Assembly (NCBI GenBank): GCA_040752415.1
Contig: JBFMGU010000166.1
Coordinates: forward strand, 1 to 23,829
Source: Myxococcota bacterium
GTDB lineage: Bacteria > Myxococcota > JACRCW01
Direction: 5' to 3'
DNA: 23,829 bases
Position numbers and translations under genes: made by a program. Under the pieces are notes generated by a model. It had not been told where the DNA came from. It was given only the letters and a program-made list of their open reading frames with translations, and made no database searches. Below, piece by piece: positions 599 through 22,700 of the stretch (positions within the stretch are counted from its first letter, which is position 1; every line of letters begins with the position of its first letter).

Positions 599-1594
599 AT
601 GTCCACGCGCAAGAACGTCATCGTCACCGGTGCCACGGGTTTTGTTGGTCACGCGCTCATTCCCGCACTGCTTGCGCGCGGTCACCGTGTCTTCGCCGCC
701 ACCCGCAAGGCGCCGCCCGCAACGCCCGATGACGACGTCACCTGGGTCCCACTGGACCTGTCGCGTCCCGCCACGGTGCGCCGCGCGCTCCAACGCATGG
801 ATTGCGCCTACTACCTGGTGCACGGCATGGCGCATTCCGCGAACTACGAACGCCAGGACGAACGATTTGCGTATGGTTTCGCGCGCGCCGCGGCGGCGAG
901 CGGAGTGCAGCGGATCATCTACCTGGGCGGTCCCATTCCCGCGGGTCGCCCCTCGCGGCACCTGCGCAGTCGTCTCCGGGTGGGTGAGATCCTCCGCGCG
1001 GGTGCCGTTCCCACGCTGGAGCTGCGCGCGAGCATGATCGTCGGCGCGGGAAGCGCGTCGTGGCAGCTGGCGCGCGACCTCGCGCTGCGCATCCCGGTGC
1101 TCCTGGCACCGCGGTGGCTGGACATGCGGATGCAGCCGGTGGCGATTGATGACGTCGTGACGGCGTTGGTGGCGGGGCTCACCTTCCGGATGCGCGAGAG
1201 CGCCGCGTACGACCTGGGCGGCCCCGAGATCCTGACGGGGTTGGAGATCCTGCAACGGATTGCGGCGCTCTCCGGTCGCCGCGCGCCCACCCTTCCCCTC
1301 CCGCTGGTGACGCCGCGACAGGTTGCGCCGTGGCTCCCGCTGCTCACGCGTGCCAATCCGCACGTGGCCCATGAGCTCCTGCTCGGCATGACCAGCGACC
1401 TCCTGGCGCGTTCCGACGAGTACTGGCACCGCATCCACCATCCGCACCGGCTGGACTTCAACACCGCGGCGCAACGCGCGCTGCAGGACGAGCTTCCGGG
1501 ACCCCAGCTGCGCAACGTGGCGGCGGTGCTGGAAGAGGCGTTGGTGGAGAAGCTGCGTCCCTCCGCACCGCGTCCCGTCGTCGACACCATGTGA
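599..1594 (+). CDS. NAD(P)-dependent epimerase / atypical SDR (YbjT-like), 331 aa
   Basis: Starts MSTRKNVIVTGATGFVG (Rossmann TGxxGxxG). AYYLVH, SRHLRSR and LRASMIVGAGSASW segments are typical of YbjT-like SDRs. The track start at 53 is overextended. Confidence 0.85.
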   Translation: MSTRKNVIVTGATGFVGHALIPALLARGHRVFAATRKAPPATPDDDVTWVPLDLSRPATVRRALQRMDCAYYLVHGMAHSANYERQDERFAYGFARAAAASGVQRIIYLGGPIPAGRPSRHLRSRLRVGEILRAGAVPTLELRASMIVGAGSASWQLARDLALRIPVLLAPRWLDMRMQPVAIDDVVTALVAGLTFRMRESAAYDLGGPEILTGLEILQRIAALSGRRAPTLPLPLVTPRQVAPWLPLLTRANPHVAHELLLGMTSDLLARSDEYWHRIHHPHRLDFNTAAQRALQDELPGPQLRNVAAVLEEALVEKLRPSAPRPVVDTM

Positions 1595-1609
1595 TTCACA
1601 GGAGCAACC

Positions 1610-2311
1610 ATGTCCACCTCCCACACCGGCACCCAGCAGGCATTGCAGACCGCGCTCGCGGTCCTGCGACGCGCCAACCTGGAAACCGTGGCCCAGGCGC
1701 AGCGCGTCTTCAGCACGCCCACGGACGCGGAGGAGGCGTTCCTGGATGCGTCCGCGCGCCTCTTTGACATCAACCACTGGGGCAACCTGGGACCGCGCCA
1801 TCCGCTGCGCGCGGAGTTCCTGCTCCATGACGAGGAGGGTTTCCCCGTCGAGCGCATGCCACGTCCCGGCGATCACATCCGCATGGGCCTGCCGCCTTCG
1901 TACTTCCTCCCGGGGCACGCGTTGGGCGGTCCGGACTGGGTGCGCGTGGAATCCGTGGAGGCGGAAGAACAACGGTCCCGCATCAGCGTCCGCCCCTCGC
2001 CGCGCCCCGCCTCCGGTGACGACATCATCACGCACTTCTTCACCGACCAGTCGCTGAACCACTTTGTCGTCGAGCGGGACGGCCTGGTGCTCACCGCCAC
2101 GGTCCGCGGTGACCACGAGTATGCGAACGTGGACCCGTACATGGCCGGTGGCGTGACCCGCGCGGTACGGAATCTCGCGGTGGCGGTGATGTCCTGGGGA
2201 TTGGGCGTGCCGCGGCACGTGGGCGGTCAGGACTCCTGGCGCCTGGAGCCGCTGCTGGGCATGCACAAGCTGATGTGGAAGCCGTTCACACGGAACCTGG
2301 TTGGAGACTGA
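1610..2311 (+). CDS. Conserved-looking hypothetical protein, 233 aa
   Basis: AGGAG RBS, 15 bp after the SDR stop. Globular composition with RLFDINHW, DWVRVE and HFFT motifs. Overlaps the convergent gene by 26 bp. Confidence 0.75.
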   Translation: MSTSHTGTQQALQTALAVLRRANLETVAQAQRVFSTPTDAEEAFLDASARLFDINHWGNLGPRHPLRAEFLLHDEEGFPVERMPRPGDHIRMGLPPSYFLPGHALGGPDWVRVESVEAEEQRSRISVRPSPRPASGDDIITHFFTDQSLNHFVVERDGLVLTATVRGDHEYANVDPYMAGGVTRAVRNLAVAVMSWGLGVPRHVGGQDSWRLEPLLGMHKLMWKPFTRNLVGD

Positions 2312-4061
2312 TGGGCAGGTTGCGGCGGGCGGCGGGCTCGCGCGTGAGCGCGGTCGACGTCGTGGCGGACAGGCCCAGCTGGGCCACGAGCACGTGATTG
2401 ATCCCGTCCCGCCCCGACGCCAGGGTCATGCGGGCGCCATCAAATCCGCTGAAGGCCACCAGGTCCGCGTACTGCTGCGGCGCGTAGTAGCTGGCGCGGT
2501 AACCCATGTGGCTTCCGCTGAGCGCATAGGGCGCCGGGGTGAAGCAGTCGGTGACCAGCGTGCCGTCTTCGACGAGGGACTCGCGCAGCCAACGGAGATG
2601 ACGCAGGCAATCCGGCTTGGGAATCCACGACGACAACCCGACGAACACGGCCAGGTCGAACCGTCCACCGGCCTGCGCCCGCAGCTCGGGACCGGTGAGG
2701 TCTCCGCGCAGGAAGCGCAGGTTGACGCCGAGCGCCCGTGCCCGTGCCTCGATGTCCGGCTGCAACACGCCACGCGGGTCCAGGTCCGCCGCCACCACCT
2801 CCACGCGTGCCATGGCCTGCGGCATCCGCGCCCGCACCTGCTCCAGCGCGCCCATCACGTCGTCGGAGAAACCGCTGGGGCCGGTGAAGACGCGCACCGT
2901 GCCACCCGTCCGGAGACGACGCTCCAGCTCCTGGGAAAGCGCGTGCGTCACCAGCGCCAGTCGGTCATACACCGCGCGGTGCAGCGGGTAGCGCAGGAAG
3001 ATGCGGTCGGCCCAGGTGCCCGGCTCGTCGGTGCGGACGTAGATCTCCCGCATCAGCTCCGCGGAATAGCCCTCCTTCAAGAGGCGACGTCCCAGCGAGG
3101 AGAATAGGAAGAACGGCTCCCGCCACGCGTCGGAAAGCGCATGCATGACGAGGTAGCCGAGCACGTAGTGCAGACTCACCAGCTTCCTGACGAGCAGCAG
3201 GCCGGTCATGCGCGGCGCGCTTCCCAGCGGAGCCAGCTCATGTCCCAGCGCCCGCGGCGCGGGCAGGACGGGCCGGAGCTCCCCGACGACACGGTGCATG
3301 GTTGCCGCGGCGGTGATGCCTTCCACGTCCACCCACACGACGGAAAGTGTGGGGACCAACCGCCGCAGCACGTCCATGGCCGCCAGGTACATCCCACGCG
3401 CCTGGGTCATGTCCGCGTGATTCTCGTGCCGGTCCAGTCCATTGCCACGCGCCGCGGCGCGCGCCAGCGCCGTCGACGGGGAGGCATCCAGGAACACCAC
3501 CACGTCGGGCAGCAGGTGATGCACGCGGAACAGGCGCAACACGCGACAGATGAAGCGCGCCAGTCCCAGTCGCGGAAGCTGCGGCAGCGGCTCGGCGTGC
3601 TCCCCGGTCATCAGGAAGCGCAGCAGGATCTTCACGTGCTCCGGGTCGGCGGCGCGGCCTCCGCTGGCGGGCCACAGGTAGTTCGCCGCGCGGCCGGCGG
3701 TGCACAGCACGGTGTTTCCGTCGGAGATCATGACGTCGGGACGGAAGCGCGCAGCCATGGCGCGGGCCGCCACATCCTGCACGATCATCTGCACCAGCTT
3801 CACCGCCGCGTAGAGCGCGGGGATGTTCACCCACTGGTGCGTGAGCCAGCGCAGCACCGCGTTCAGCCGAGCGGTCACGGGCAGGCCAGGAGGCTCGAAA
3901 CCGTCGGTGACGTGGTCCTGTTCGGGACCGGTGAGGCGGAACTGCTCCCCGGCCAGCCCCACGGTGAGCCCGGATTCCGCCGACAACAGCGACGGCAGCG
4001 TCCGCGCAACCGTGCTCTTGCCACTGCCATCAATGCCCAACAGCGAGACGTGGAGTGTCAT
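2286..4061 (-). CDS. Thymidylate-kinase-like P-loop domain fused to class I SAM-methyltransferase-like domain, 591 aa
   Basis: GGAGGAG RBS before ATG 4061. P-loop GIDGSGKST and TMK-like PDVVVFLDASPSTALAR...DRHE. C-terminal Rossmann MTase motifs VVAADLDP, FLRGDL, FDLAVFVGL and LVEDGTLV. Confidence 0.8.
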   Translation of the reverse strand: MTLHVSLLGIDGSGKSTVARTLPSLLSAESGLTVGLAGEQFRLTGPEQDHVTDGFEPPGLPVTARLNAVLRWLTHQWVNIPALYAAVKLVQMIVQDVAARAMAARFRPDVMISDGNTVLCTAGRAANYLWPASGGRAADPEHVKILLRFLMTGEHAEPLPQLPRLGLARFICRVLRLFRVHHLLPDVVVFLDASPSTALARAAARGNGLDRHENHADMTQARGMYLAAMDVLRRLVPTLSVVWVDVEGITAAATMHRVVGELRPVLPAPRALGHELAPLGSAPRMTGLLLVRKLVSLHYVLGYLVMHALSDAWREPFFLFSSLGRRLLKEGYSAELMREIYVRTDEPGTWADRIFLRYPLHRAVYDRLALVTHALSQELERRLRTGGTVRVFTGPSGFSDDVMGALEQVRARMPQAMARVEVVAADLDPRGVLQPDIEARARALGVNLRFLRGDLTGPELRAQAGGRFDLAVFVGLSSWIPKPDCLRHLRWLRESLVEDGTLVTDCFTPAPYALSGSHMGYRASYYAPQQYADLVAFSGFDGARMTLASGRDGINHVLVAQLGLSATTSTALTREPAARRNLPISLQPGSV

Positions 4062-5106
4062 GGTGGGTCTCCTCCATGAGGGTGCCGCGGTAGCGAACAC
4101 CGGGAACAAAGGGCACCACCGCCGCCAGACAGATGCGCAGCCGGCGGTGCCACGCGTGCATGTCCTCGTCGACGAACAACGCGCCGCGCGGACGGTCCAT
4201 CAGCTCGAGCTCGACGCTCTCCCGGGGGGCCAGCCGCAGGTGCCATGCGCCCTCCGCCAGCCGCTCGGGGGCCAGGAGGTGGCGCGCCAGGCTTCCCCGC
4301 TCGAGGACGGGGAGCAGGTGCACGGACAGCCCCGGCTCGTCGGTGGAGATGGCGGTGGGAATGGGCAGCTCCGGGATGGGACCGGTCATCACCACGCCGG
4401 CCACCATGTCCATCGTCGTCAGCGAATGCGGGCCGGTGATGCGAACGCGCTCCGCTCGACGGAAAGCAGCCACGCGCGCGGCACGCCATGCAAAGGCCAG
4501 CGCGTACTCGAGGTGGTTGACGCGCTCCAATCCCAGAGAGGCCGCCGCGGCCGTGTGCAGGGGCTTCAAGCCGGAGCGGAACAGGCGCAGGTCGCCCGGC
4601 ACGCGACCCAATTGCCCCAGCCCCACGAGACCCGCGGCGTGGAAAACGCGCATGGCGCCTTCCGCGGTGAACGTCTCGACGCGCACCACCTTGGCGGCGG
4701 CGCGCCGCCCCTCCCGCAGGGAGACGCACAATTCATCCACCGCCTGCACGCCGTCGCGGGGCACCGCGTAGCGACGCGCCAGCACGTTGCCGGAACCCAT
4801 GCGCAGCGCGGAAAGAGCAACGCGGCTGGGCTTGCGCTCCTGGGCCAGCACAGCGTCGATGGCGGAGCGCAACGTGCCACTGCCGCCTCCCGCAATCACC
4901 GCCACCTGCCCTCGCGTCCGCTCGAGGAAATGCGTGACCCGCGCTGTGACATCCGCGTGGTCTTCCGCGAGCGCCAGCTCGACATCGACGAGACCGCCCA
5001 GGTTCTCCGCCATCCGTCGTCGGAGCACCACCGCTTCGCCGCCGTGATCACCCAGTCCCGCGTGGTCGTGGACCACCATCAGGACGTGTTTCACTCGGGT
5101 TGCCAT
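4030..5106 (-). CDS. Diacylglycerol/lipid kinase family (YegS/DgkB-like) protein, divergent, 358 aa
   Basis: GGAGG RBS before ATG 5106. VIAGGGSGT (cf. GGDGT), RMGSGNVLAR (cf. PxGTGNDFAR) and C-terminal VDED (cf. DGE). Confidence 0.75.
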   Translation of the reverse strand: MATRVKHVLMVVHDHAGLGDHGGEAVVLRRRMAENLGGLVDVELALAEDHADVTARVTHFLERTRGQVAVIAGGGSGTLRSAIDAVLAQERKPSRVALSALRMGSGNVLARRYAVPRDGVQAVDELCVSLREGRRAAAKVVRVETFTAEGAMRVFHAAGLVGLGQLGRVPGDLRLFRSGLKPLHTAAAASLGLERVNHLEYALAFAWRAARVAAFRRAERVRITGPHSLTTMDMVAGVVMTGPIPELPIPTAISTDEPGLSVHLLPVLERGSLARHLLAPERLAEGAWHLRLAPRESVELELMDRPRGALFVDEDMHAWHRRLRICLAAVVPFVPGVRYRGTLMEETHHDTPRLAVGH

Positions 5107-16232: not shown

Positions 16233-18311
16233 TCAGCTGGCCACGGGCATGTGCGGGCGGACGGAGATGGAGGCGTCCGCGGCGTCGCCCTGCTCGTCGG
16301 TGAGCGTGACGTGGACCTCCATGAGCTGACCATCCACGCGCTCCGGCTCGGCGATGATCAGCGGCCAGCCCACCAGCACGTCGTTGTCATCCTGCGAGGT
16401 CAGGCGGGTGACGGTGCTGCTGGTGCTCTTGTCCCCGTTCACGCGCGTTTCCACGTCGAGCCACACCTTCTCCGGGTCCAGCCCCTGGGAACGCAGGCTC
16501 ATCCACATGTGGTAGCCGCCCTGCGCGCCGCGCACGAGCTCCACGTCCTGCCCGTCGGAGAGCGACTCATAGCGGCTCTCCCCCGTCCCGATCTCGACGG
16601 TGGGCGCCGGCGTCTCCGTCCCACAGCCGCTCATCACCGCGGCCACCAGCGCCACCGCGCCCCGACGACGCGCCCGCAGCAGGCCCAGGCCCACGACGAG
16701 CGCCAGGAAGCCGGCGGGCAGCTCCGCGTTCGGAACCGCACAGGCACACCCGGCGTCAATACGACGGGAGGGACGCGGCTCGACGCCGTTGCGACCGGGA
16801 TGCGCCGGCTCCGGGAGCGTGCGGGCATAGAACTCCGGCGGGATGGGTGACGACGGCGCCACGCAGCGCGCTCCACCCTCACCGTTGACGGCGATGTAGC
16901 CCCGGTCGCAGGAGCAGGTGGGCGTGAGGTTCACCGCCACGCAGCGGCCATGCTCACCACAGCTCGTGGTCAGGCACGGGTCGGCAATCAGCTCGCCGGT
17001 GGCGTCGTCGCGGTCACCGGGATTGACAAAGGACATGCGCGCGTCCTGGCACACCACGGTGCCGGTTCCCGTCGAGGTGGTCATGGGGCGCGCGGTGGCC
17101 TCGGCCAGGCAGGCGCAGCCGGTCCGTCCCTCGGCATCCGTCCGGCACATCCCGCCCGCGCCACAGGTCACAAAGGCGCAGGGGTCCGGCTGCACCGGCG
17201 TGTTGGCCGGGCACATGTCCACGCCGTCGACGATGCGGGAGAGCTGGTGCACGCGGTCCACGTCGCCGAGCTCGGAGCGACGGAAGATGGGGTCGGTGCT
17301 CATCTCCTCCGGCGAGAGGCGCGTGTAGAGCCGCGTCAGGTACGGTCGGCCTTCCAGCACGGAGATGAGCGCGTTGCGGGCGGCCTCCTGGTCCGTGTTG
17401 TTGACGGGAGAGTTGCGCACCTGGTCCAGGAACGGCTGCGTGGCACCAGCAAACTCCGTCACGAAACCGCGGCCTCCCGCCTCGTCGACCTTGCGCGCCA
17501 CCAGCGCGGTCCAGTTGGTGCCGTTGGCGCCCCAGACGTTGTACGGGTCGTAGGTGATCTCGTCGTCGCGGATGCTGAGCGAGGGCCAGTTGGCCGACTC
17601 ATAACGCTGCTCCCCGACGATGGTGGCGAGGATGCCCATCTCCGGCTCCGCCGCGATGGCGGTGAGCCGCACCGGGATCATGGGAGCCTCCCCGGGGAGG
17701 GTGAGCTTGAGGGGTTGGATCTGGCTCACGTCGGCGTCAGGCAGCAGCTTCAGCGCCAGGAACTTCATGCCCTCCGCCGTGTAGATGTCGACGTAGGGCT
17801 CCATCACCTCGGTGATGCGGTACCCGTTGGTGCGCAACCAGTTGACCAGCGCGCTGGAGTCCTGGGATTCCACCACCGCCACGTCGTAGGGACCGACCTC
17901 TTCACGCACGTGCACGGTGACGTCGTCGTTGCGGGTGCCGCCGGCGTTGGGCGGGGGATTGCCGCCGGTGGCCGCGTCCTCCGCGCCCCAGTACCAGCAC
18001 TCCTGCGGCATCATGAACACCGGCCCGGTGTTGGCCGCCAGCGAGGTGAGCGCGAGCTGCGGGAACACCTCCAGGCTCTCCGCGTCAGGCACCGCGCCCA
18101 GGGGCAGCACCCAGGAGAAATCCGCGTCGCCACCGCTGTAGGCAATCTGCACCACCATGGTGGTGGTCCCCGGTCCCATCACGAACAGGATGTGCTCCGC
18201 CGACTGGTCCACCGGCGACCGGGAACAGAAGAAACCACCACACGCCAGCGCATCACGCGCGGGAAGCACCACTGCCAGCGTCGCCGCCAGCGCACCCATC
18301 CAGATTCTCAT
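16233..18311 (-). CDS. DUF2330-type secreted protein with EGF-like Cys modules, internal MYXO-CTERM and C-terminal lipoprotein-like domain, 692 aa
   Basis: Signal peptide ...ARDALA-CGGFFC. VDQSAEHILF, FSWVLP, WLRTNGY, FLALKL, MIPVRLTAIAA and YLTRLYTRLSPEEM..DP motifs. GCAC...FLALVVGLGLL-RARRR at aa ~521-550, then a second leader ending MSG-C563. Confidence 0.9.
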   Translation of the reverse strand: MRIWMGALAATLAVVLPARDALACGGFFCSRSPVDQSAEHILFVMGPGTTTMVVQIAYSGGDADFSWVLPLGAVPDAESLEVFPQLALTSLAANTGPVFMMPQECWYWGAEDAATGGNPPPNAGGTRNDDVTVHVREEVGPYDVAVVESQDSSALVNWLRTNGYRITEVMEPYVDIYTAEGMKFLALKLLPDADVSQIQPLKLTLPGEAPMIPVRLTAIAAEPEMGILATIVGEQRYESANWPSLSIRDDEITYDPYNVWGANGTNWTALVARKVDEAGGRGFVTEFAGATQPFLDQVRNSPVNNTDQEAARNALISVLEGRPYLTRLYTRLSPEEMSTDPIFRRSELGDVDRVHQLSRIVDGVDMCPANTPVQPDPCAFVTCGAGGMCRTDAEGRTGCACLAEATARPMTTSTGTGTVVCQDARMSFVNPGDRDDATGELIADPCLTTSCGEHGRCVAVNLTPTCSCDRGYIAVNGEGGARCVAPSSPIPPEFYARTLPEPAHPGRNGVEPRPSRRIDAGCACAVPNAELPAGFLALVVGLGLLRARRRGAVALVAAVMSGCGTETPAPTVEIGTGESRYESLSDGQDVELVRGAQGGYHMWMSLRSQGLDPEKVWLDVETRVNGDKSTSSTVTRLTSQDDNDVLVGWPLIIAEPERVDGQLMEVHVTLTDEQGDAADASISVRPHMPVAS

Positions 18312-18344
18312 GGTCCACCCTCTTGAAAGAGCCGTGGTTCCAAG

Positions 18345-18360
18345 AGCATGCGCGGTGCCA
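18345..18360 (-). promoter_or_regulatory. Sigma54 promoter of the DUF2330 gene
   Basis: TGGCAC-CGCGC-ATGCT, 33 bp upstream of ATG 18311. Confidence 0.65.
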
Positions 18361-18473
18361 ACACCACACGCCAGGGATCCCGCACACTTGGCCGGGCCGG
18401 GGCGCCTCGGGTTTCCAGCGACGTCAGAAAAGTGAGACGCGGATTCCGGGTTGCCGTTCCATCCGCGCATCCC

Positions 18474-19119: not shown

Positions 19120-20883
19120 TCACGGCGCGCACGCGCTCTCCACGCGGCACCTGGAGGAGCAACAGTCCCCGCTCATGGTGTTGCCGTCGTCGCACTCCTC
19201 GGTTCCCACGCGGAGGAAGTCGCCGCAGACGGGCTCGCACTCACTGGGCGTGCGGCCGCTGCACTCCCAGCCCAGCTCCTCCTGACAGCCCGCTGTGCAC
19301 CCGTCGCCGTTGGCGGTGTTGTTGTCGTCGCAGGATTCGTCCCCGGCGCGGATGCCGTCGCCACAGGTGGTGGTGCACGTGCTGGGCTCACCGTCACATT
19401 GGAACCCCTCCTCCACCAGGCAGGCCTCGTCGCAGCCGTCGCCGTCGCTGGTGTCCCCGTCGTCGCAGACCTCGGTGCCCAGGATGCGGCCGTCACCGCA
19501 CTCGCCGTCGCAGGCGCTCGGCTCACCGCGACAGTCCCAACCCAGCTCCACGCGACAGAAGTCGTCACACCCGTCGCCATCCACGGGGTTGAGATCGTCG
19601 CATTCCTCGTTGTCGGCCAGCGTGCCGTCGCCGCACCAGGTGTTGCACGCGCTGGGACTGCCCACGCAGATGAAGCCACGCTCCGCGAAGCAAGCGCTGG
19701 AGCAGCCGTCACCGGTGAGGGCATTCCCGTCGTCACACCACTCCGCGCCAACCACCACGCCGTCGCCGCAGAGGGATTCACACGCGCTCGGGCTACCGCC
19801 GCACTGCCATCCCGTCTCCAGGAAACACTCCCCGCTGCACCCGTCCCCGTCGCGCGGATTGCGGTCGTCGCAGAGCTCCGGCCCGGCGGTGATTCCGTCG
19901 CCACACATCGTCACGCAGGCGCTGGGCTGCCCGTTGCAGGTCCAGCCGGGCTCCAGGCCGCAGGAGGCGTCGCAGCCGTCGGCGTTGTCGAGATTCGCGT
20001 CGTCGCAGAGCTCCGGACCCGCGGTCAGCCCGTCACCACACAGGGTGGCGCACAGGCTGGGCTCACCGTTGCAGGTCCACCCCGCTTCCGGCGCGCACAC
20101 GTCGCTGCAGCCGTCTCCCGGGGCGTTGTTGCCGTCGTCGCACACTTCCAGGCCGGCCATGGTCCCGTCGCCACAGGCGGGGGCACAGGTGCTGGGTTGG
20201 CCGGTGCAGCTCCAGCCGCGCTCCGTCCCGCAGGTGCTGGTGCATCCGTCCCCGTCGCTGCCGTTCCCGTCGTCGCAGGGCTCGTTGCCCAGGACCAGGC
20301 CGTCGCCGCACACGGTGGCGCAGGCGCTGGGCGCCCCGGCGCACGACCAGCCGGGCTCCGGCGCGCACGCGGCGCTGCACCCGTCGTCACCCGTGAGGTT
20401 GCCGTCGTCACAGGCCTCCTCCCCGTCCAGCGCGCCGTTGCCACACAGGTTGCCTCCGCCGGAGGAGCTGCTGCTGCTGGCCACGCCGCTCGAGGACGAT
20501 GACGACGACGAGGAAGACGACGCGCCCGTGGCGGCGGACTGGGACGAGCTGCTGGACGTGGCCGCGCTGGTGCTGTCTCCGCCGGTTGAGCTGGAGCCCT
20601 GACTGGTGGCGCTGGCGCTGCTGGAGGGCGCCCCGCTGGAGGAGGAGGCGCCGGAGCCGGTTCCACTGGAGTCCGCGCCGCTGGACGACGACGTGCTGCT
20701 CGTGACGTCGGCGCTCGACGAGCTGGAGCCGGCGCTGCTGGTGGGGTTGTTGTCGCCGGGCGCTGCCAGGGGATGGTTGGCGCATTCCGCTCCAGGCGGA
20801 CACGGTGGAGCCAGGGGCTCGCGGCATCCCACGCCCGTGGCCAGGGCCAGCGTGATGCTCCAGGTCAACGCCACGCGTCTCAT
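19120..20883 (-). CDS. Lipoprotein with Ser-rich linker and 10 Myxococcus cysteine-rich repeats (DUF4215/TIGR02232-type), 587 aa
   Basis: GGAGG RBS. Leader [20 protein letters not shown], poly-Ser linker, then repeats CGDG-x5-E-x-CDDGN-x3-DGC-x3-C-x2-E-x-GW-x-C-x-G-x-PS-x-C. Confidence 0.93.
19123..20448 (-). repeat. Coding tandem repeat, about 135-bp unit x10 (last unit truncated)
   Basis: Nine 45-46-aa six-Cys units and one shortened terminal unit, counted in the translation. Confidence 0.9.
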
Positions 20884-20975
20884 GCTTCCTCCAGCACAGC
20901 CGTCCACTTCCGGGGAATGGTCACCGGCGGCCGCCGTCCACGACGTCACCGGGCGCTCTTCGAATGCCAGGGCCG

Positions 20976-22247
20976 TCAGGGTTCCAGCGGGTGGTCGTGG
21001 CCTTCAATCCGTTCGTACAGGTTGTTCTCGATGGACTGATCCGCCGCTTCGACTCCGCTTAGCCCGGTTGAGTCGTTGTCGAAGACCCAGTTGTTGCGCA
21101 CCCGGTTGGCGCGGGCGCCCGAGGCAAAGCGGATGCCCACCAACTCATTGTCATGCGCCACGTTGTTCTCGATGACGTTGTACTGGGTCCCTTCATAGAT
21201 GTGGATGCCGTACTCGTTGCGGTAGCAGTCATTGCCGCGGATGACGTTGCTGGGACTGCCGAAGATGGCAATGCCCCAGCCGCCGTTGTCGTGGCTGCGG
21301 TTGCCCTCCACCACCGACGCGCTGATGTTGAGGTGCAGCATGATGCCGTGCCGACCGTTGTGGCTCGTCTCGTTGTTGCGGATGGTGAGGTGATCGCAGT
21401 TCTTGGAGCAGATGATGCCGTGGGTCCCGTTGTGGTGGACGTGGTTGTTGGCAATGAGGAGGTGGTCGGAGTTGTCATGCGGGTCAATCCCGTAGACCAC
21501 GTTGTGACCCACCTCGTTGCCCACCCACTCCATGCAGTAGGCACCCCAGGTGTAGCTGCCCATGTAGTTGTGGTGGATGAAGTTGTTGTGGACCACGCCG
21601 TAGACCTCCACCTGGTCAAACACCGGTGACATGGACCCGCTCTCGCCGGTGCCCACCACGCGCCACGCCAGCCCGTATGCCGAGTCACCAAAATGACCCA
21701 GGTAGGCAATCTCGCTGTTGCGGATGTCCATGCGTGATTCACGTGGATCGTCGTCGTCCAGGAAGGAGCGCACCGCGATGTGGGCCCGCCCGTCCTCATG
21801 GATGAGGTCCGGGAAGCCCGCGGGCTCATCCCAGCCCAGGACGCGGGTGCTGTTGATGTCCAACCCGCCCCACTCCGCGCGGATGTTCACGTAGCGTTCC
21901 GGGGTGCTGAGCATCCGCAGCTCGTCCACATCACCGCCGATGGCCGAGCCGTGCAGCCGCAGTGTGGCGCCGTCCGACAGGGCGACGTTGGCCCGCAGCA
22001 CCCAGACGTTGTCCGGACCGGGCAGACGCGCCAGGGCGGATTCCGGGACACGTTCGGAGACGTCGGAGAGGGTACAGACCACGTCGTGGCGGAGCTCGAT
22101 GACCAGCTCGGCGGCATGCCACTGGATGTCTTCGTCCTCGCAGGATGGGAGCGAGGCGGGGCTGGTGTTGACCCCGTGGCACACACCTGGAGTCTGGCCA
22201 TCCGTCAGCATGGACAGCGTGAGCAACGCCACCAGGGATGACGTCAT
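20976..22247 (-). CDS. Secreted right-handed parallel beta-helix protein, AlgG-like (mannuronan C5-epimerase family), 423 aa
   Basis: Hydrophobic leader [21 protein letters not shown] motif at 21494-21474 followed by LLIANN...HGII. Asn-ladder beta-helix repeats. Confidence 0.8.
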
Positions 22248-22700
22248 GGACCTTCCCGTCCGCGCGCAGGTCGGGACCCTGGCGCATGGAGGTTGGAGTC
22301 TCAGCACGAAACCACGAGCCGCGACGCCGGAGGTTTCAGGGGGCGGTAGGCCGTGCTCGCACCGTGGCGGATGGGACCCCGCGCGGGAGCGGGAACGTCC
22401 GCTTCTCAATCAATACCGCTCGGTAGCCAGGCCGCAACTGCAACGTTGGCATTTCCGCTCGACGGAGCCCAGGGATTTGAGATCCGCCGCCGGGCGCGCG
22501 GTAAGGCGAAGCGAGGCTAACGCTGAATTCGCCCAAGACCCATCAGCGCGATCACGGTTCCGACGGTCAGGGGCACCACGGGGCGGATGTTCACGACTTC
22601 CAGGCCACCGCTGCGGGCCGCAACCTCCGACGGGGGTGTCATCCACGTTGTCACGCGCTCAACGCAGCGCGATGTCGCGGGGCAACGGGAGTGCGCCAGC

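Follow-up and report, generated by a model that had tools for sequence, protein, structure and literature searches.

The MYXO-CTERM signature is tripartite, consisting of a motif with an invariant cysteine, a hydrophobic helix and an Arg-rich cluster, and the tag of TraA is cut by the myxosortase MrtX, in Escherichia coli too (PMC11980579). The Discussion of the same paper (mBio 2025) points to rare ORFs with internal MYXO-CTERM motifs, such as MXAN_5598 of Myxococcus xanthus, a probable fusion of two genes whose N-terminal part is proposed to be processed and anchored at the surface; the passages of that paper considered here contain no tested case of a myxosortase acting on an internal tag, or of LspA acting behind a myxobacterial membrane hairpin (PMC11980579). 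In the traA-traB operon of M. xanthus (PLoS Genet 2012), a four-base overlap links the gene of a MYXO-CTERM surface protein with that of the protein it works with (PMC3325183). The first-pass annotation of the locus described here had taken its arrangement to be undescribed, a claim that has to be given up in this general form, internal MYXO-CTERM tags being already in print with MXAN_5598 (PMC11980579).

The locus belongs to a Myxococcota genome and was analysed within a stretch of 23,829 nucleotides (hereafter the window), and its features are collected in the table below. The longest ORF spans 16233..18470 on the minus strand (745 aa) and ends with a TGA stop at 16233-16235. Residues are numbered here, as in the first-pass annotation, on the 692-aa form (P0001), for which the Met at 18311 was taken as the start, the alignments of 11 relatives beginning there. 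Read in this single frame, the C-terminal part runs RRIDAGCACAVPNAELPAGFLALVVGLGLLRARRR-GAVALVAAVMSG-C563-GTETPAPTVEIGTGE up to the TGA, so that the tag, the second leader and the tail indeed stand in one stop-free frame, as had been claimed. Two decoding explanations were dropped: for stop-codon reassignment, other genes of the genome terminate normally past their tags, and for programmed frameshifting, the frame is continuous as it stands.

Features of the fused gene, with positions in the window and residues of the 692-aa form.
Feature	Position	Strand	Basis or remark
Whole fused gene	16233..18311	(-)	692 codons + TGA stop; no internal stop
N-terminal signal peptide, aa 1-23, MRIWMGALAATLAVVLPARDALA	18243..18311	(-)	sequence reading; cleavage site inferred
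DUF2330 domain (PF10092)	17283..18251	(-)	Pfam 98.4 bits vs cut-off 24.7
Cys-rich, EGF-like region, aa 367-483	16863..17213	(-)	invariant Cys residues
Internal MYXO-CTERM tag, aa 519-550	16662..16757	(-)	TIGR03901
RARRR cluster, putative cytoplasmic tail of the tag	16662..16676	(-)	sequence
Second hydrophobic leader GAVALVAAVMSG, aa 551-562, 12 residues	16626..16661	(-)	sequence
Lipobox-like MSG-C563	16623..16634	(-)	sequence and 9 fused sequences
Tail domain, aa 563-692, 130 residues	16236..16625	(-)	predicted beta-sandwich, unnamed lipoprotein family

The N-terminal half begins like an exported protein, with a CGGFFC motif directly after the signal peptide, and 12 aligned sequences show no variation at A21, A23, C24, G25, G26, F27, F28 and C29. 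The DUF2330 match covers aa 21-343 of P0001 (aa 74-396 of the 745-aa ORF) and nearly the entire profile (positions 4-278 of 279). It is followed by the EGF-like region, in which thirteen cysteines are invariant (C367, C378, C383, C389, C399, C401, C421, C446, C451, C457, C466, C468 and C483) and in which Pfam gives a weak match under its cut-off, to Pvs28 EGF (E 0.0041). The tag then shows all three parts of the signature, namely a C522-A-C524 motif whose C522 is invariant (12/12 aligned sequences), a hydrophobic stretch (L531-L545) and an Arg cluster (R546-R550), and it matches TIGR03901 with 23.9 bits in a six-frame search of the genome (cut-off 20) as against 17.1 bits, under that cut-off, in a scan of the complete 745-aa ORF. 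It lies away from the extreme C terminus, with 142 residues after the Arg cluster.

These residues start with the second leader, the order being RARRR, GAVALVAAVMSG and C563, so that a leader beginning at residue 546-551 of 692 stands far from the N terminus. Its twelve hydrophobic residues correspond to the core length of a signal peptide and are short for a permanent membrane helix; in nine fused sequences (P0001-7, L020 and L021) the corresponding stretch measures 12-19 residues. The suggestion that RARRR serves tag and leader at once is upheld insofar as it is the sole basic stretch ahead of the second leader and a basic cluster recurs in 9/9 fused sequences. Gly at -1 and the Cys are likewise retained in 9/9, all of which match a lipobox pattern of the PROSITE type, and the lipoboxes are loose, with MSGC here, AQGC in two relatives and Leu at -3 in just 2/9. 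Both the MYXO-CTERM tag and the lipoprotein-type leader lie outside their normal positions in a protein, which speaks against the proposal developed below.

Two other genomes, and 8 protein clusters that come from other assemblies, have the same in-frame junction, with 50-58% identity in the tail. Seven of these clusters (P0001-P0007, 692-706 aa) are 51-58% identical to the last 293 residues of the query, the eighth being P0025, and in genomes G027 and G083 query residues 1-690 are covered without a stop. A stop or a frameshift after the Arg cluster, which the first-pass annotation had named as fatal to its reading, occurs in no fused-form relative. The CxC motif, the basic cluster, the second hydrophobic stretch and the G-C pair are all present in 9/9 fused sequences examined, the rest of the hairpin being variable among them, and the tail domain is under evident constraint.

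The genome itself indicates how unusual such a position is. A six-frame search yields 51 TIGR03901 matches at or above the cut-off, of which 46 are followed by a stop 0-17 codons past the Arg cluster and 5 (about 1 in 10) are internal, each leading straight into a hydrophobic leader. Because the large majority of tags are near-terminal and the junction studied here is conserved in relatives, the feature goes beyond chance. Behind the other four internal tags, the leader closes with ARA or LRA ahead of E/Q and so resembles a signal peptidase I site; OmpA-family proteins make up three of these four tails. As to processing enzymes, the genome encodes a myxosortase-family CPBP protease (at L058) that scores 112.2 bits on Mrt_core (NF040914; cut-off 100) and stays under the cut-offs of the named subfamilies (MrtP 161.2 vs 250, MrtC 141.3 vs 195, MrtX 106.5 vs 180). 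The gene lspA is present (94.1 bits vs cut-off 73.95), and lgt scores 118.3 bits alone and 119.2 bits with its in-frame neighbours, against a cut-off of 118.9.

A search with P0014 for related loci in genome contigs returned no relative, and a metagenome search led to L055, the closest unfused relative. There, the DUF2330 protein terminates in a MYXO-CTERM tag (...VARRRRQGARGMEQAG-TGA), and the ATG of a second gene, for a 155-aa lipoprotein beginning MISNVTSRLVLVLALLWAAIAC-GP..., overlaps this upstream stop (ATGA) and has a GGAG 8 nt upstream. In a tree built only from the N-terminal parts (20 rows), a branch sets the 9 fused rows apart (SH-aLRT 82), and the L055/P0008 protein comes out as their sister (99). 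In genome G039, too, a DUF2330/MYXO-CTERM gene precedes a tail homologue encoded on the same strand. Beside 26 other unfused DUF2330 loci (L023-L048), an HMM built from alignment A2 detected no tail homologue, which is weak evidence of absence because the flanks are short (107-1404 nt past the stop in the 20 loci where the gene was located); it hints weakly that the partnership of DUF2330 with this tail is not general to DUF2330. Judged from these comparisons, the gene is a conserved in-frame fusion of two formerly translationally coupled genes. The ancestor consisted of a gene for a DUF2330 protein with a terminal MYXO-CTERM tag and one for a small beta-sandwich lipoprotein, probably its binding partner; fusion did away with the stop/start overlap and with the basic N-region that the lipoprotein had possessed, all sorting elements being retained.

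The tail domain has no match to a Pfam or NCBIfam family, nor to an OmpA or barrel profile, and its family is characterized by a motif of the form GTGE...QGG.H.W...VGWP (alignment A2, 19 sequences). That this domain might occur elsewhere as a stand-alone lipoprotein had been raised as a check, and it does: P0013, a stand-alone homologue with 58% identity, has the leader MRSLILVLALLGC-G, and a hydrophobic leader ending in Cys precedes all 18 stand-alone homologues examined (P0013, P0014 and 16/16 further genomic matches), as assessed by eye from unconfirmed start codons. By its leaders, then, the tail family is a lipoprotein family. The AlphaFold2 model of the tail is all-beta (mean pLDDT 96.2), and fold searches return generic Ig/FN3-like sandwiches only, with TEAD2 (E 4.5e-4, TMq 0.48) and PA1606 as the best Foldseek matches and a best VIA-align Z of 9.4 (rmsd 3.8 over 105 residues) among many unrelated rows at Z 7-8. 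The full-length model is of moderate quality (mean pLDDT 70.8), falling below 50 at residues 508-534 and 548-566, stretches that include part of the tag and of the second leader; a fold search with it added RhoGDI (TMt about 0.5) and nothing convincing for DUF2330. No function was drawn from the matches to TEAD2, PA1606 or RhoGDI.

A complex of aa 24-520 with the tail is predicted with a score of 0.69, the best of 3 controls reaching 0.01; the mark used for this score is attained by 116/157 solved complexes and 2/215 mismatched pairs, counts that are only roughly applicable because our own alignments were used. At least 91% of contacts are common to the complex runs, with a partner pLDDT of at least 85, and the predicted interface, which includes tail residues 31-41 and 85-88 and head residues 240-243 and 342-347, involves conserved motifs of the tail. 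The modelling thus supports binding between the DUF2330 half and the tail.

Overall, the product of the fused gene is probably a precursor of a DUF2330 surface protein and a partner lipoprotein, and we consider it rather probable that this conserved two-gene fusion yields a protein that is cut at both signals into two lipid-anchored partners. The hairpin topology, the two cleavages and where the products end up are inferred, and the route would be this. Led by the N-terminal signal peptide, the DUF2330 part would cross the inner membrane; the hydrophobic stretch of the tag would then act as a stop-transfer sequence, with RARRR staying in the cytoplasm, and the next 12 hydrophobic residues would re-insert N-in/C-out in the manner of a signal peptide, forming a membrane hairpin and allowing export of the tail. 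A myxosortase-family protease would cleave after the lipidated cysteine of the tag, and Lgt and LspA would lipidate and cut at Cys563, the outcome being two lipid-anchored proteins in a 1:1 ratio that may assemble together, and a hairpin peptide that would be discarded. If the MYXO-CTERM product is displayed at the surface and the lipoprotein is anchored to the outer membrane on its inner face, they would end up apart, an arrangement that fits the predicted complex badly unless it forms before export.

The stronger statement, that the gene encodes a natural polyprotein resolved at a membrane hairpin by a myxosortase and Lgt/LspA into two lipoproteins of opposite polarity, produced strictly 1:1 from a single translation event and forming the predicted complex, is one to which we would give even chances. 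The Arg cluster would here double as the cytoplasmic tail of the tag and the basic N-region of the leader, with the myxosortase cutting behind a C-terminally lipidated Cys and Lgt/LspA acting before an N-terminally lipidated one. A bolder and weaker extension, suggested by the faint fold resemblance to RhoGDI and TEAD, is that the tail might be a lipid-pocket sandwich escorting the lipid anchor of its partner.

The hairpin alone is no proof of cleavage, because any exported downstream domain requires a second hydrophobic segment after a cytoplasmic Arg cluster. It is possible, though on balance doubtful, that the fusion is real and the hairpin is cut at neither or at one site, the product being an inner-membrane protein with two periplasmic domains and a hairpin tether, or, in a variant of this idea, that LspA alone or a myxosortase alone acts; in both versions, tag and lipobox would be kept mainly for topology. 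Binding of the two domains to each other, as predicted, would be easiest with both at one membrane face, and the loose lipoboxes and the score of the tag below cut-off in the whole-protein scan point the same way. However, the 9 fused sequences, with hairpins that have otherwise diverged, all keep the tag Cys, the Gly at -1 and Cys563, which counts against a tether because a mere tether needs none of them. The brevity of the second stretch in the gene studied and the lipoprotein-type leaders on 18/18 stand-alone tail homologues examined also count against this alternative. Export of beta-barrel and OmpA proteins from the inner membrane is an established part of outer-membrane biogenesis, and in this genome the OmpA/beta-barrel tails that follow three further internal tags would have to leave that membrane to function.

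Another conceivable main source of the lipoprotein is a start codon of its own within the fused frame, the read-through form being a tolerated by-product of a lost stop. In-frame GTG codons do occur between the tag and Cys563, a start at V540 would give MGLGLLRARRRGAVALVAAVMSGC, which resembles a lipoprotein leader, and initiation without an SD sequence takes place in some bacteria. Nevertheless, when GGAG, GAGG, AGGA or GGAGG was sought within 20 nt 5' of in-frame start codons, none of the 5 GTG/ATG codons between the tag and Cys563 was preceded by such a tetramer, in agreement with the earlier remark that no RBS/start pair is evident, and the same holds for L020 and L021, in contrast with the GGAG of unfused L055. 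Start-codon positions are moreover not conserved among the fused proteins, and ribosomes coming from upstream would read through in any case, the frame being open in all fused sequences seen. We therefore regard this explanation as very unlikely. In a draft of 520 contigs with 4.29% estimated contamination, an error of assembly or sequencing comes to mind, as does a pseudogene recently formed by loss of a stop codon; both are next to negligible, since 8 protein clusters and 2 other genomes share the junction, their tails being 50-58% identical and under constraint.

If both cuts occur as we propose, the gene provides a compact natural substrate for asking whether a myxosortase acts on a non-terminal tag and whether Lgt/LspA act behind a MYXO-CTERM tag. 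The hairpin and its flanking domains are small, and the sister lineage with separately encoded proteins offers a built-in control. DUF2330 gains a predicted partner, a putative cell-envelope address and a testable interface. Annotation rules that limit sorting tags or lipoprotein signals to the ends of proteins would miss or mis-split such genes. Should the polyprotein reading be true, then, together with the four other internal tags, signal-preserving fusion may represent a general route by which Myxococcota join envelope partners.

Compared with described systems, the gene resembles MXAN_5598 in having a MYXO-CTERM tag in mid-ORF, interpreted as the result of a fusion of two genes, and shares with that type the succession of an internal tag and a second export signal. 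It nevertheless falls outside the type (adhesin head, internal tag, barrel/OmpA tail), the tail of MXAN_5598 being an outer-membrane beta-barrel plus an OmpA domain, whereas here a DUF2330 head is joined to a 130-residue lipoprotein domain—a predicted beta-sandwich—behind a lipobox Cys. In the passages on MXAN_5598 there is no mention of a further signal peptide immediately behind the Arg cluster, of a lipoprotein-type leader or of DUF2330. It is three other ORFs of the genome, on contigs C4, C496 and C504, that share the adhesin-plus-OmpA build described in those passages. The unfused L055 pair, with its ATGA overlap, recalls what is described of traA-traB, which differs in that it still consists of two genes and in that TraB is an OmpA-domain protein and not a small lipoprotein.

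Further afield, Abdul Halim et al. 2017 reportedly, to go by the title, found an internal tripartite signal processed by the archaeosortase ArtA in Haloferax volcanii, a similar case of a C-terminal-type tripartite signal that is processed without being C-terminal, though with another enzyme family, another domain of life and another tag. Hayashi et al. 1985 reportedly, again by the title, observed modification and processing of internalized prolipoprotein signal sequences in both E. coli and B. subtilis, which is what LspA cleavage at Cys563 would need; those constructs were engineered and had no preceding C-terminal sorting tag, whereas the present gene is natural. In viral polyproteins, for example those of flaviviruses, the signal peptidase of the host cleaves at internal signal peptides, so that, as proposed here, one precursor threaded back and forth through a membrane gives separate proteins; the hosts there are eukaryotic, the proteins viral and the cleavage not lipid-dependent, and the two cases are alike in logic only. 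Literature searches found no report combining an internal signal peptide, a polyprotein and a lipoprotein, or of an internal or second lipobox, and no paper on DUF2330, and the lipoprotein-type junction did not turn up in the parts of the literature covered, MYXO-CTERM papers included. Internal tags themselves are thus known, and what this locus adds to them is a lipoprotein-type second leader, the DUF2330 family and a two-gene ancestor with an ATGA overlap.

Since 11 relatives align from the Met at window position 18311, the fused protein is taken as 692 aa (protein cluster P0001), in line with the residue numbering of the first-pass annotation, within a longest ORF at this locus of 745 aa (16233..18470 (-)). 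It joins a DUF2330 protein (the head) to a 130-residue domain (the tail) through a MYXO-CTERM tag and a second leader, and the tag's Arg cluster continues into that leader in a frame without any stop, as the first-pass annotation had described, the frame staying open to the terminal TGA. With the MYXO-CTERM profile TIGR03901, the tag reaches 23.9 bits in a six-frame genome search (cut-off 20) and 17.1 bits in a whole-ORF scan. Right behind the N-terminal leader stands the motif A-x-A-C-G-G-F-F-C (window 18228-18251(-), aa 21-28), invariant in 12/12 aligned DUF2330 proteins. The mature head probably starts at Cys24, and Asp at -4 would argue against a putative lipobox at this residue. Upstream on the same strand lie genes for a DUF4215 protein with 9 Cys repeats (window 19120-20949(-), 259 bits) and, at window 20976-22409(-), for a protein of the right-handed beta-helix/NosD-like kind; a universal stress protein and a TetR regulator are encoded downstream. 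A 458-codon open frame antisense to the fused gene (window 16950-18326(+)) and many other long overlapping frames were dismissed as genes, since such frames commonly arise where G+C content is very high.

Features of the fused gene, and the other internal MYXO-CTERM tags of the source genome (contig:position)
Feature	Position	Strand	Note
Signal peptide, then CGGFFC	N-terminus of fused protein	-	CGGFFC invariant in alignment
DUF2330 domain (PF10092)	fused protein	-	98.4 bits vs cut-off 24.7
Cys-rich EGF-like stretch	between DUF2330 domain and tag	-	
Internal MYXO-CTERM tag DAGCACAVPNAELPAGFLALVVGLGLLRARRR	aa 519-550	-	
Second leader GAVALVAAVMSG, then C563	after tag's Arg cluster	-	
Tail domain, 130 residues	window 16236-16625	-	ends at TGA 16233-16235
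Internal tag, L050-L053 set	C319:2079-2168	+	TIGR03901
Internal tag, L050-L053 set	C4:21754-21855	+	TIGR03901
Internal tag, L050-L053 set	C496:8504-8593	+	TIGR03901
Internal tag, L050-L053 set	C504:79-177	+	TIGR03901

With the last 293 residues as query, a search of ~5.8 billion proteins yielded seven clusters that share the junction (692-706 residues, the window's own included; 51-58% identity to the query), together with five proteins of 559-617 residues that terminate right behind the Arg cluster; a further search, aimed at longer tail-bearing proteins, brought the fused clusters to eight (P0025). The genome sample covered 401 members of the phylum. A DUF2330 homologue (E <= 1e-20) is present in 83 of them, and in three of these, belonging to two families (the source genome G000, G027 and G083), the match spans query residues 1-690 with no stop. 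The stop or frameshift that the first-pass annotation had named as a refutation is absent from the fused relatives in G027 and G083; in a fourth genome, G068, a contig end interrupts the match at residue 532. The CxC, the basic cluster, the Gly at -1 and the Cys are kept in 9/9 fused sequences (P0001-7 and DNA loci L020 and L021), each with a second hydrophobic stretch, 12-19 residues long, and each fitting a PROSITE-style lipobox pattern, and the rest of the putative hairpin diverges. The fusion is neither chance nor error; it is conserved, and the sorting elements of both partners, each exported on its own before the fusion, are all preserved with it.

The tail matches no Pfam or NCBIfam family, and it does stand alone elsewhere, a point that had been put forward for checking: P0013 (137 aa, 58% identical to the tail) begins MRSLILVLALLGC-G, the 155-residue P0014 (48% identical) has a leader ending ALAC-G, and a hydrophobic leader ending in Cys, as judged by eye, precedes the domain in 16/16 further genomic matches. 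The family, conserved in GTG, QGG.H.W and a late D (TD) across 19 aligned sequences, is multi-copy, with ten matches in G000, and is, going by these predicted leaders, an unnamed lipoprotein family of the phylum. An AlphaFold2 model of the tail is an all-beta sandwich (mean pLDDT 96.2), and fold searches with it gave generic Ig/FN3-like sandwiches only, making the fold uninformative on function; the weak best Foldseek matches, the lipid-pocket sandwiches TEAD and RhoGDI (TM about 0.4-0.5), may reflect no more than a common fold.

The closest unfused protein, P0008, bears the JGI name MYXO-CTERM domain-containing protein, and its contigs agree in length with contigs of the P0014 cluster. At the metagenome locus L055, the DUF2330 gene ends ...VARRRRQGARGMEQAG-TGA, its stop overlapping by four bases (ATGA) the ATG of a lipoprotein gene (MISNVTSRLVLVLALLWAAIAC-GP...) that has GGAG 8 nt upstream of its start. 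A quick maximum-likelihood tree was built on 20 N-terminal parts trimmed of tag and tail (9 from fused and 11 from unfused proteins; 6 of 26 unfused genome loci were chosen, and 3 loci with no ORF found by the script were left out). One branch separates the nine fused rows from all others (SH-aLRT 82, which is not strong), the L055/P0008 protein is their sister (99), and every deeper row is unfused. The simplest reading would be that the genes fused once, in the common ancestor of the fused clade, with the direction taken from midpoint rooting and from outgroups that are unfused. Genome G039 likewise carries a DUF2330/MYXO-CTERM gene followed by a tail homologue on the same strand. Contig C190 of G000 (L049) pairs the two families in a third arrangement: a DUF2330 paralogue (1439-3310(+)), whose open frame ends ...STCACAIPVTDVPMGLAA and resembles a tag cut short behind the Cys motif, lies tail to tail, with 46 nt between, with a longer tail-family member (3356-4414(-)) that has an extra Cys-rich C-terminal part. 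No tail-family member turned up in the short flanking DNA of a further 26 unfused DUF2330 loci, which would limit the partnership to certain DUF2330 subfamilies.

A complex model of residues 24-520 with the tail scored 0.69, the best of three controls 0.01; the score mark was reached by 116/157 solved complexes vs 2/215 mismatched pairs, rates that are only rough because our own alignments were used. Contact agreement across the runs was at least 91% and partner pLDDT at least 85, and the predicted interface involves conserved motifs on the tail side and conserved DUF2330 positions on the head side. As model confidence rather than measurement, these values support binding of the tail by the head. 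Location poses a difficulty: with the head displayed on the surface and the lipoprotein facing the periplasm, the two could stay bound only if the complex assembled before export.

G000 (11.0 Mb, 520 contigs, 96.8% complete, 4.3% contamination) has both lspA and lgt, and one CPBP protease that scores above the cut-off of NF040914, the core model of the myxosortase family (112.2 bits vs 100), and below those of MrtX, MrtC and MrtP. TIGR03901 has 51 matches over cut-off in this genome, the next stop being 0-17 residues away in 46 and 142-877 in five, and a second hydrophobic leader follows directly in all five. In the fused gene this leader closes with a lipobox; in the other four it has ARA or LRA before E/Q at its end, like a signal peptidase I site. 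Those four tags (24.7-36.1 bits) have 660-877 residues beyond the leader; three of their tails are OmpA-family with thrombospondin (TSP_3) repeats, the fourth has a CarboxypepD_reg domain, and one of the heads is a giant Ig/DUF4215 adhesin. Two more paralogues of the OmpA-type tail occur on contigs C212 and C437. In a 61-genome sample, most relatives of this tail lie within open frames of 560-830 residues.

By Sec insertion and the positive-inside rule, the fused protein would form a membrane hairpin: the tag's hydrophobic stretch would halt transfer and leave RARRR in the cytoplasm, and the second stretch would re-insert N-in/C-out, exporting the tail. Myxosortase would then release the DUF2330 protein with a lipid at its C-terminus, Lgt and LspA would release the tail with a lipid at its N-terminus, and the hairpin peptide would be discarded after both cuts. 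This interpretation is plausible and fits every test run, and we lean towards double cleavage of the precursor. A hairpin left uncut or half-cut is a rather unlikely outcome. The second stretch has only 12 residues in the fused gene, the G-C at its end is invariant and all examined stand-alone tail homologues are lipoproteins, all of which argue for a cleavable leader rather than a permanent anchor. Production of the tail by separate internal initiation is improbable: the earlier statement that no RBS/start pair precedes the second leader holds, with no in-frame start behind an SD sequence anywhere along the hairpin-coding stretch in the three fused genes examined as DNA. An artefactual junction is scarcely credible, given its recurrence in eight fused clusters and in G027 and G083.

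A 1985 paper reportedly, from its title, dealt with internalized prolipoprotein signal sequences; our literature search returned nothing on an internal lipobox or on bacterial internal-signal-peptide polyproteins, and no paper on DUF2330. A term search of Haft's 2023 myxosortase preprint gave no mention of internal tags, fusions, polyproteins or lipoproteins. In the MYXO-CTERM model of PMC11980579 (mBio 2025), the invariant Cys is lipidated, MrtX cleaves and the type II secretion system then brings the protein to the surface for display; the TraA tag was processed by MrtX in E. coli too, and work on internal LPXTG and an internal archaeosortase signal is cited there. The same paper states that internal MYXO-CTERM motifs occur in rare ORFs, describes MXAN_5598, an adhesin with an internal tag, an outer-membrane barrel and an OmpA domain, as a possible two-gene fusion resembling TraA plus TraB, and proposes processing and anchoring of its N-terminal part. 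The arrangement, of which the first-pass annotation knew no description, is thus in part already described: an internal-tag fusion is in print for this one OmpA-type case, which the three OmpA-family tails behind G000 internal tags resemble. The L055 gene pair has the same overlapping arrangement as that reported for traA/traB (PMC3325183). New relative to these systems are the lipoprotein-type second leader behind an internal tag, the DUF2330 head with a small lipoprotein as its predicted partner, the sister gene pair whose ATGA overlap documents the fusion, and the occurrence of 5/51 internal tags within one genome.
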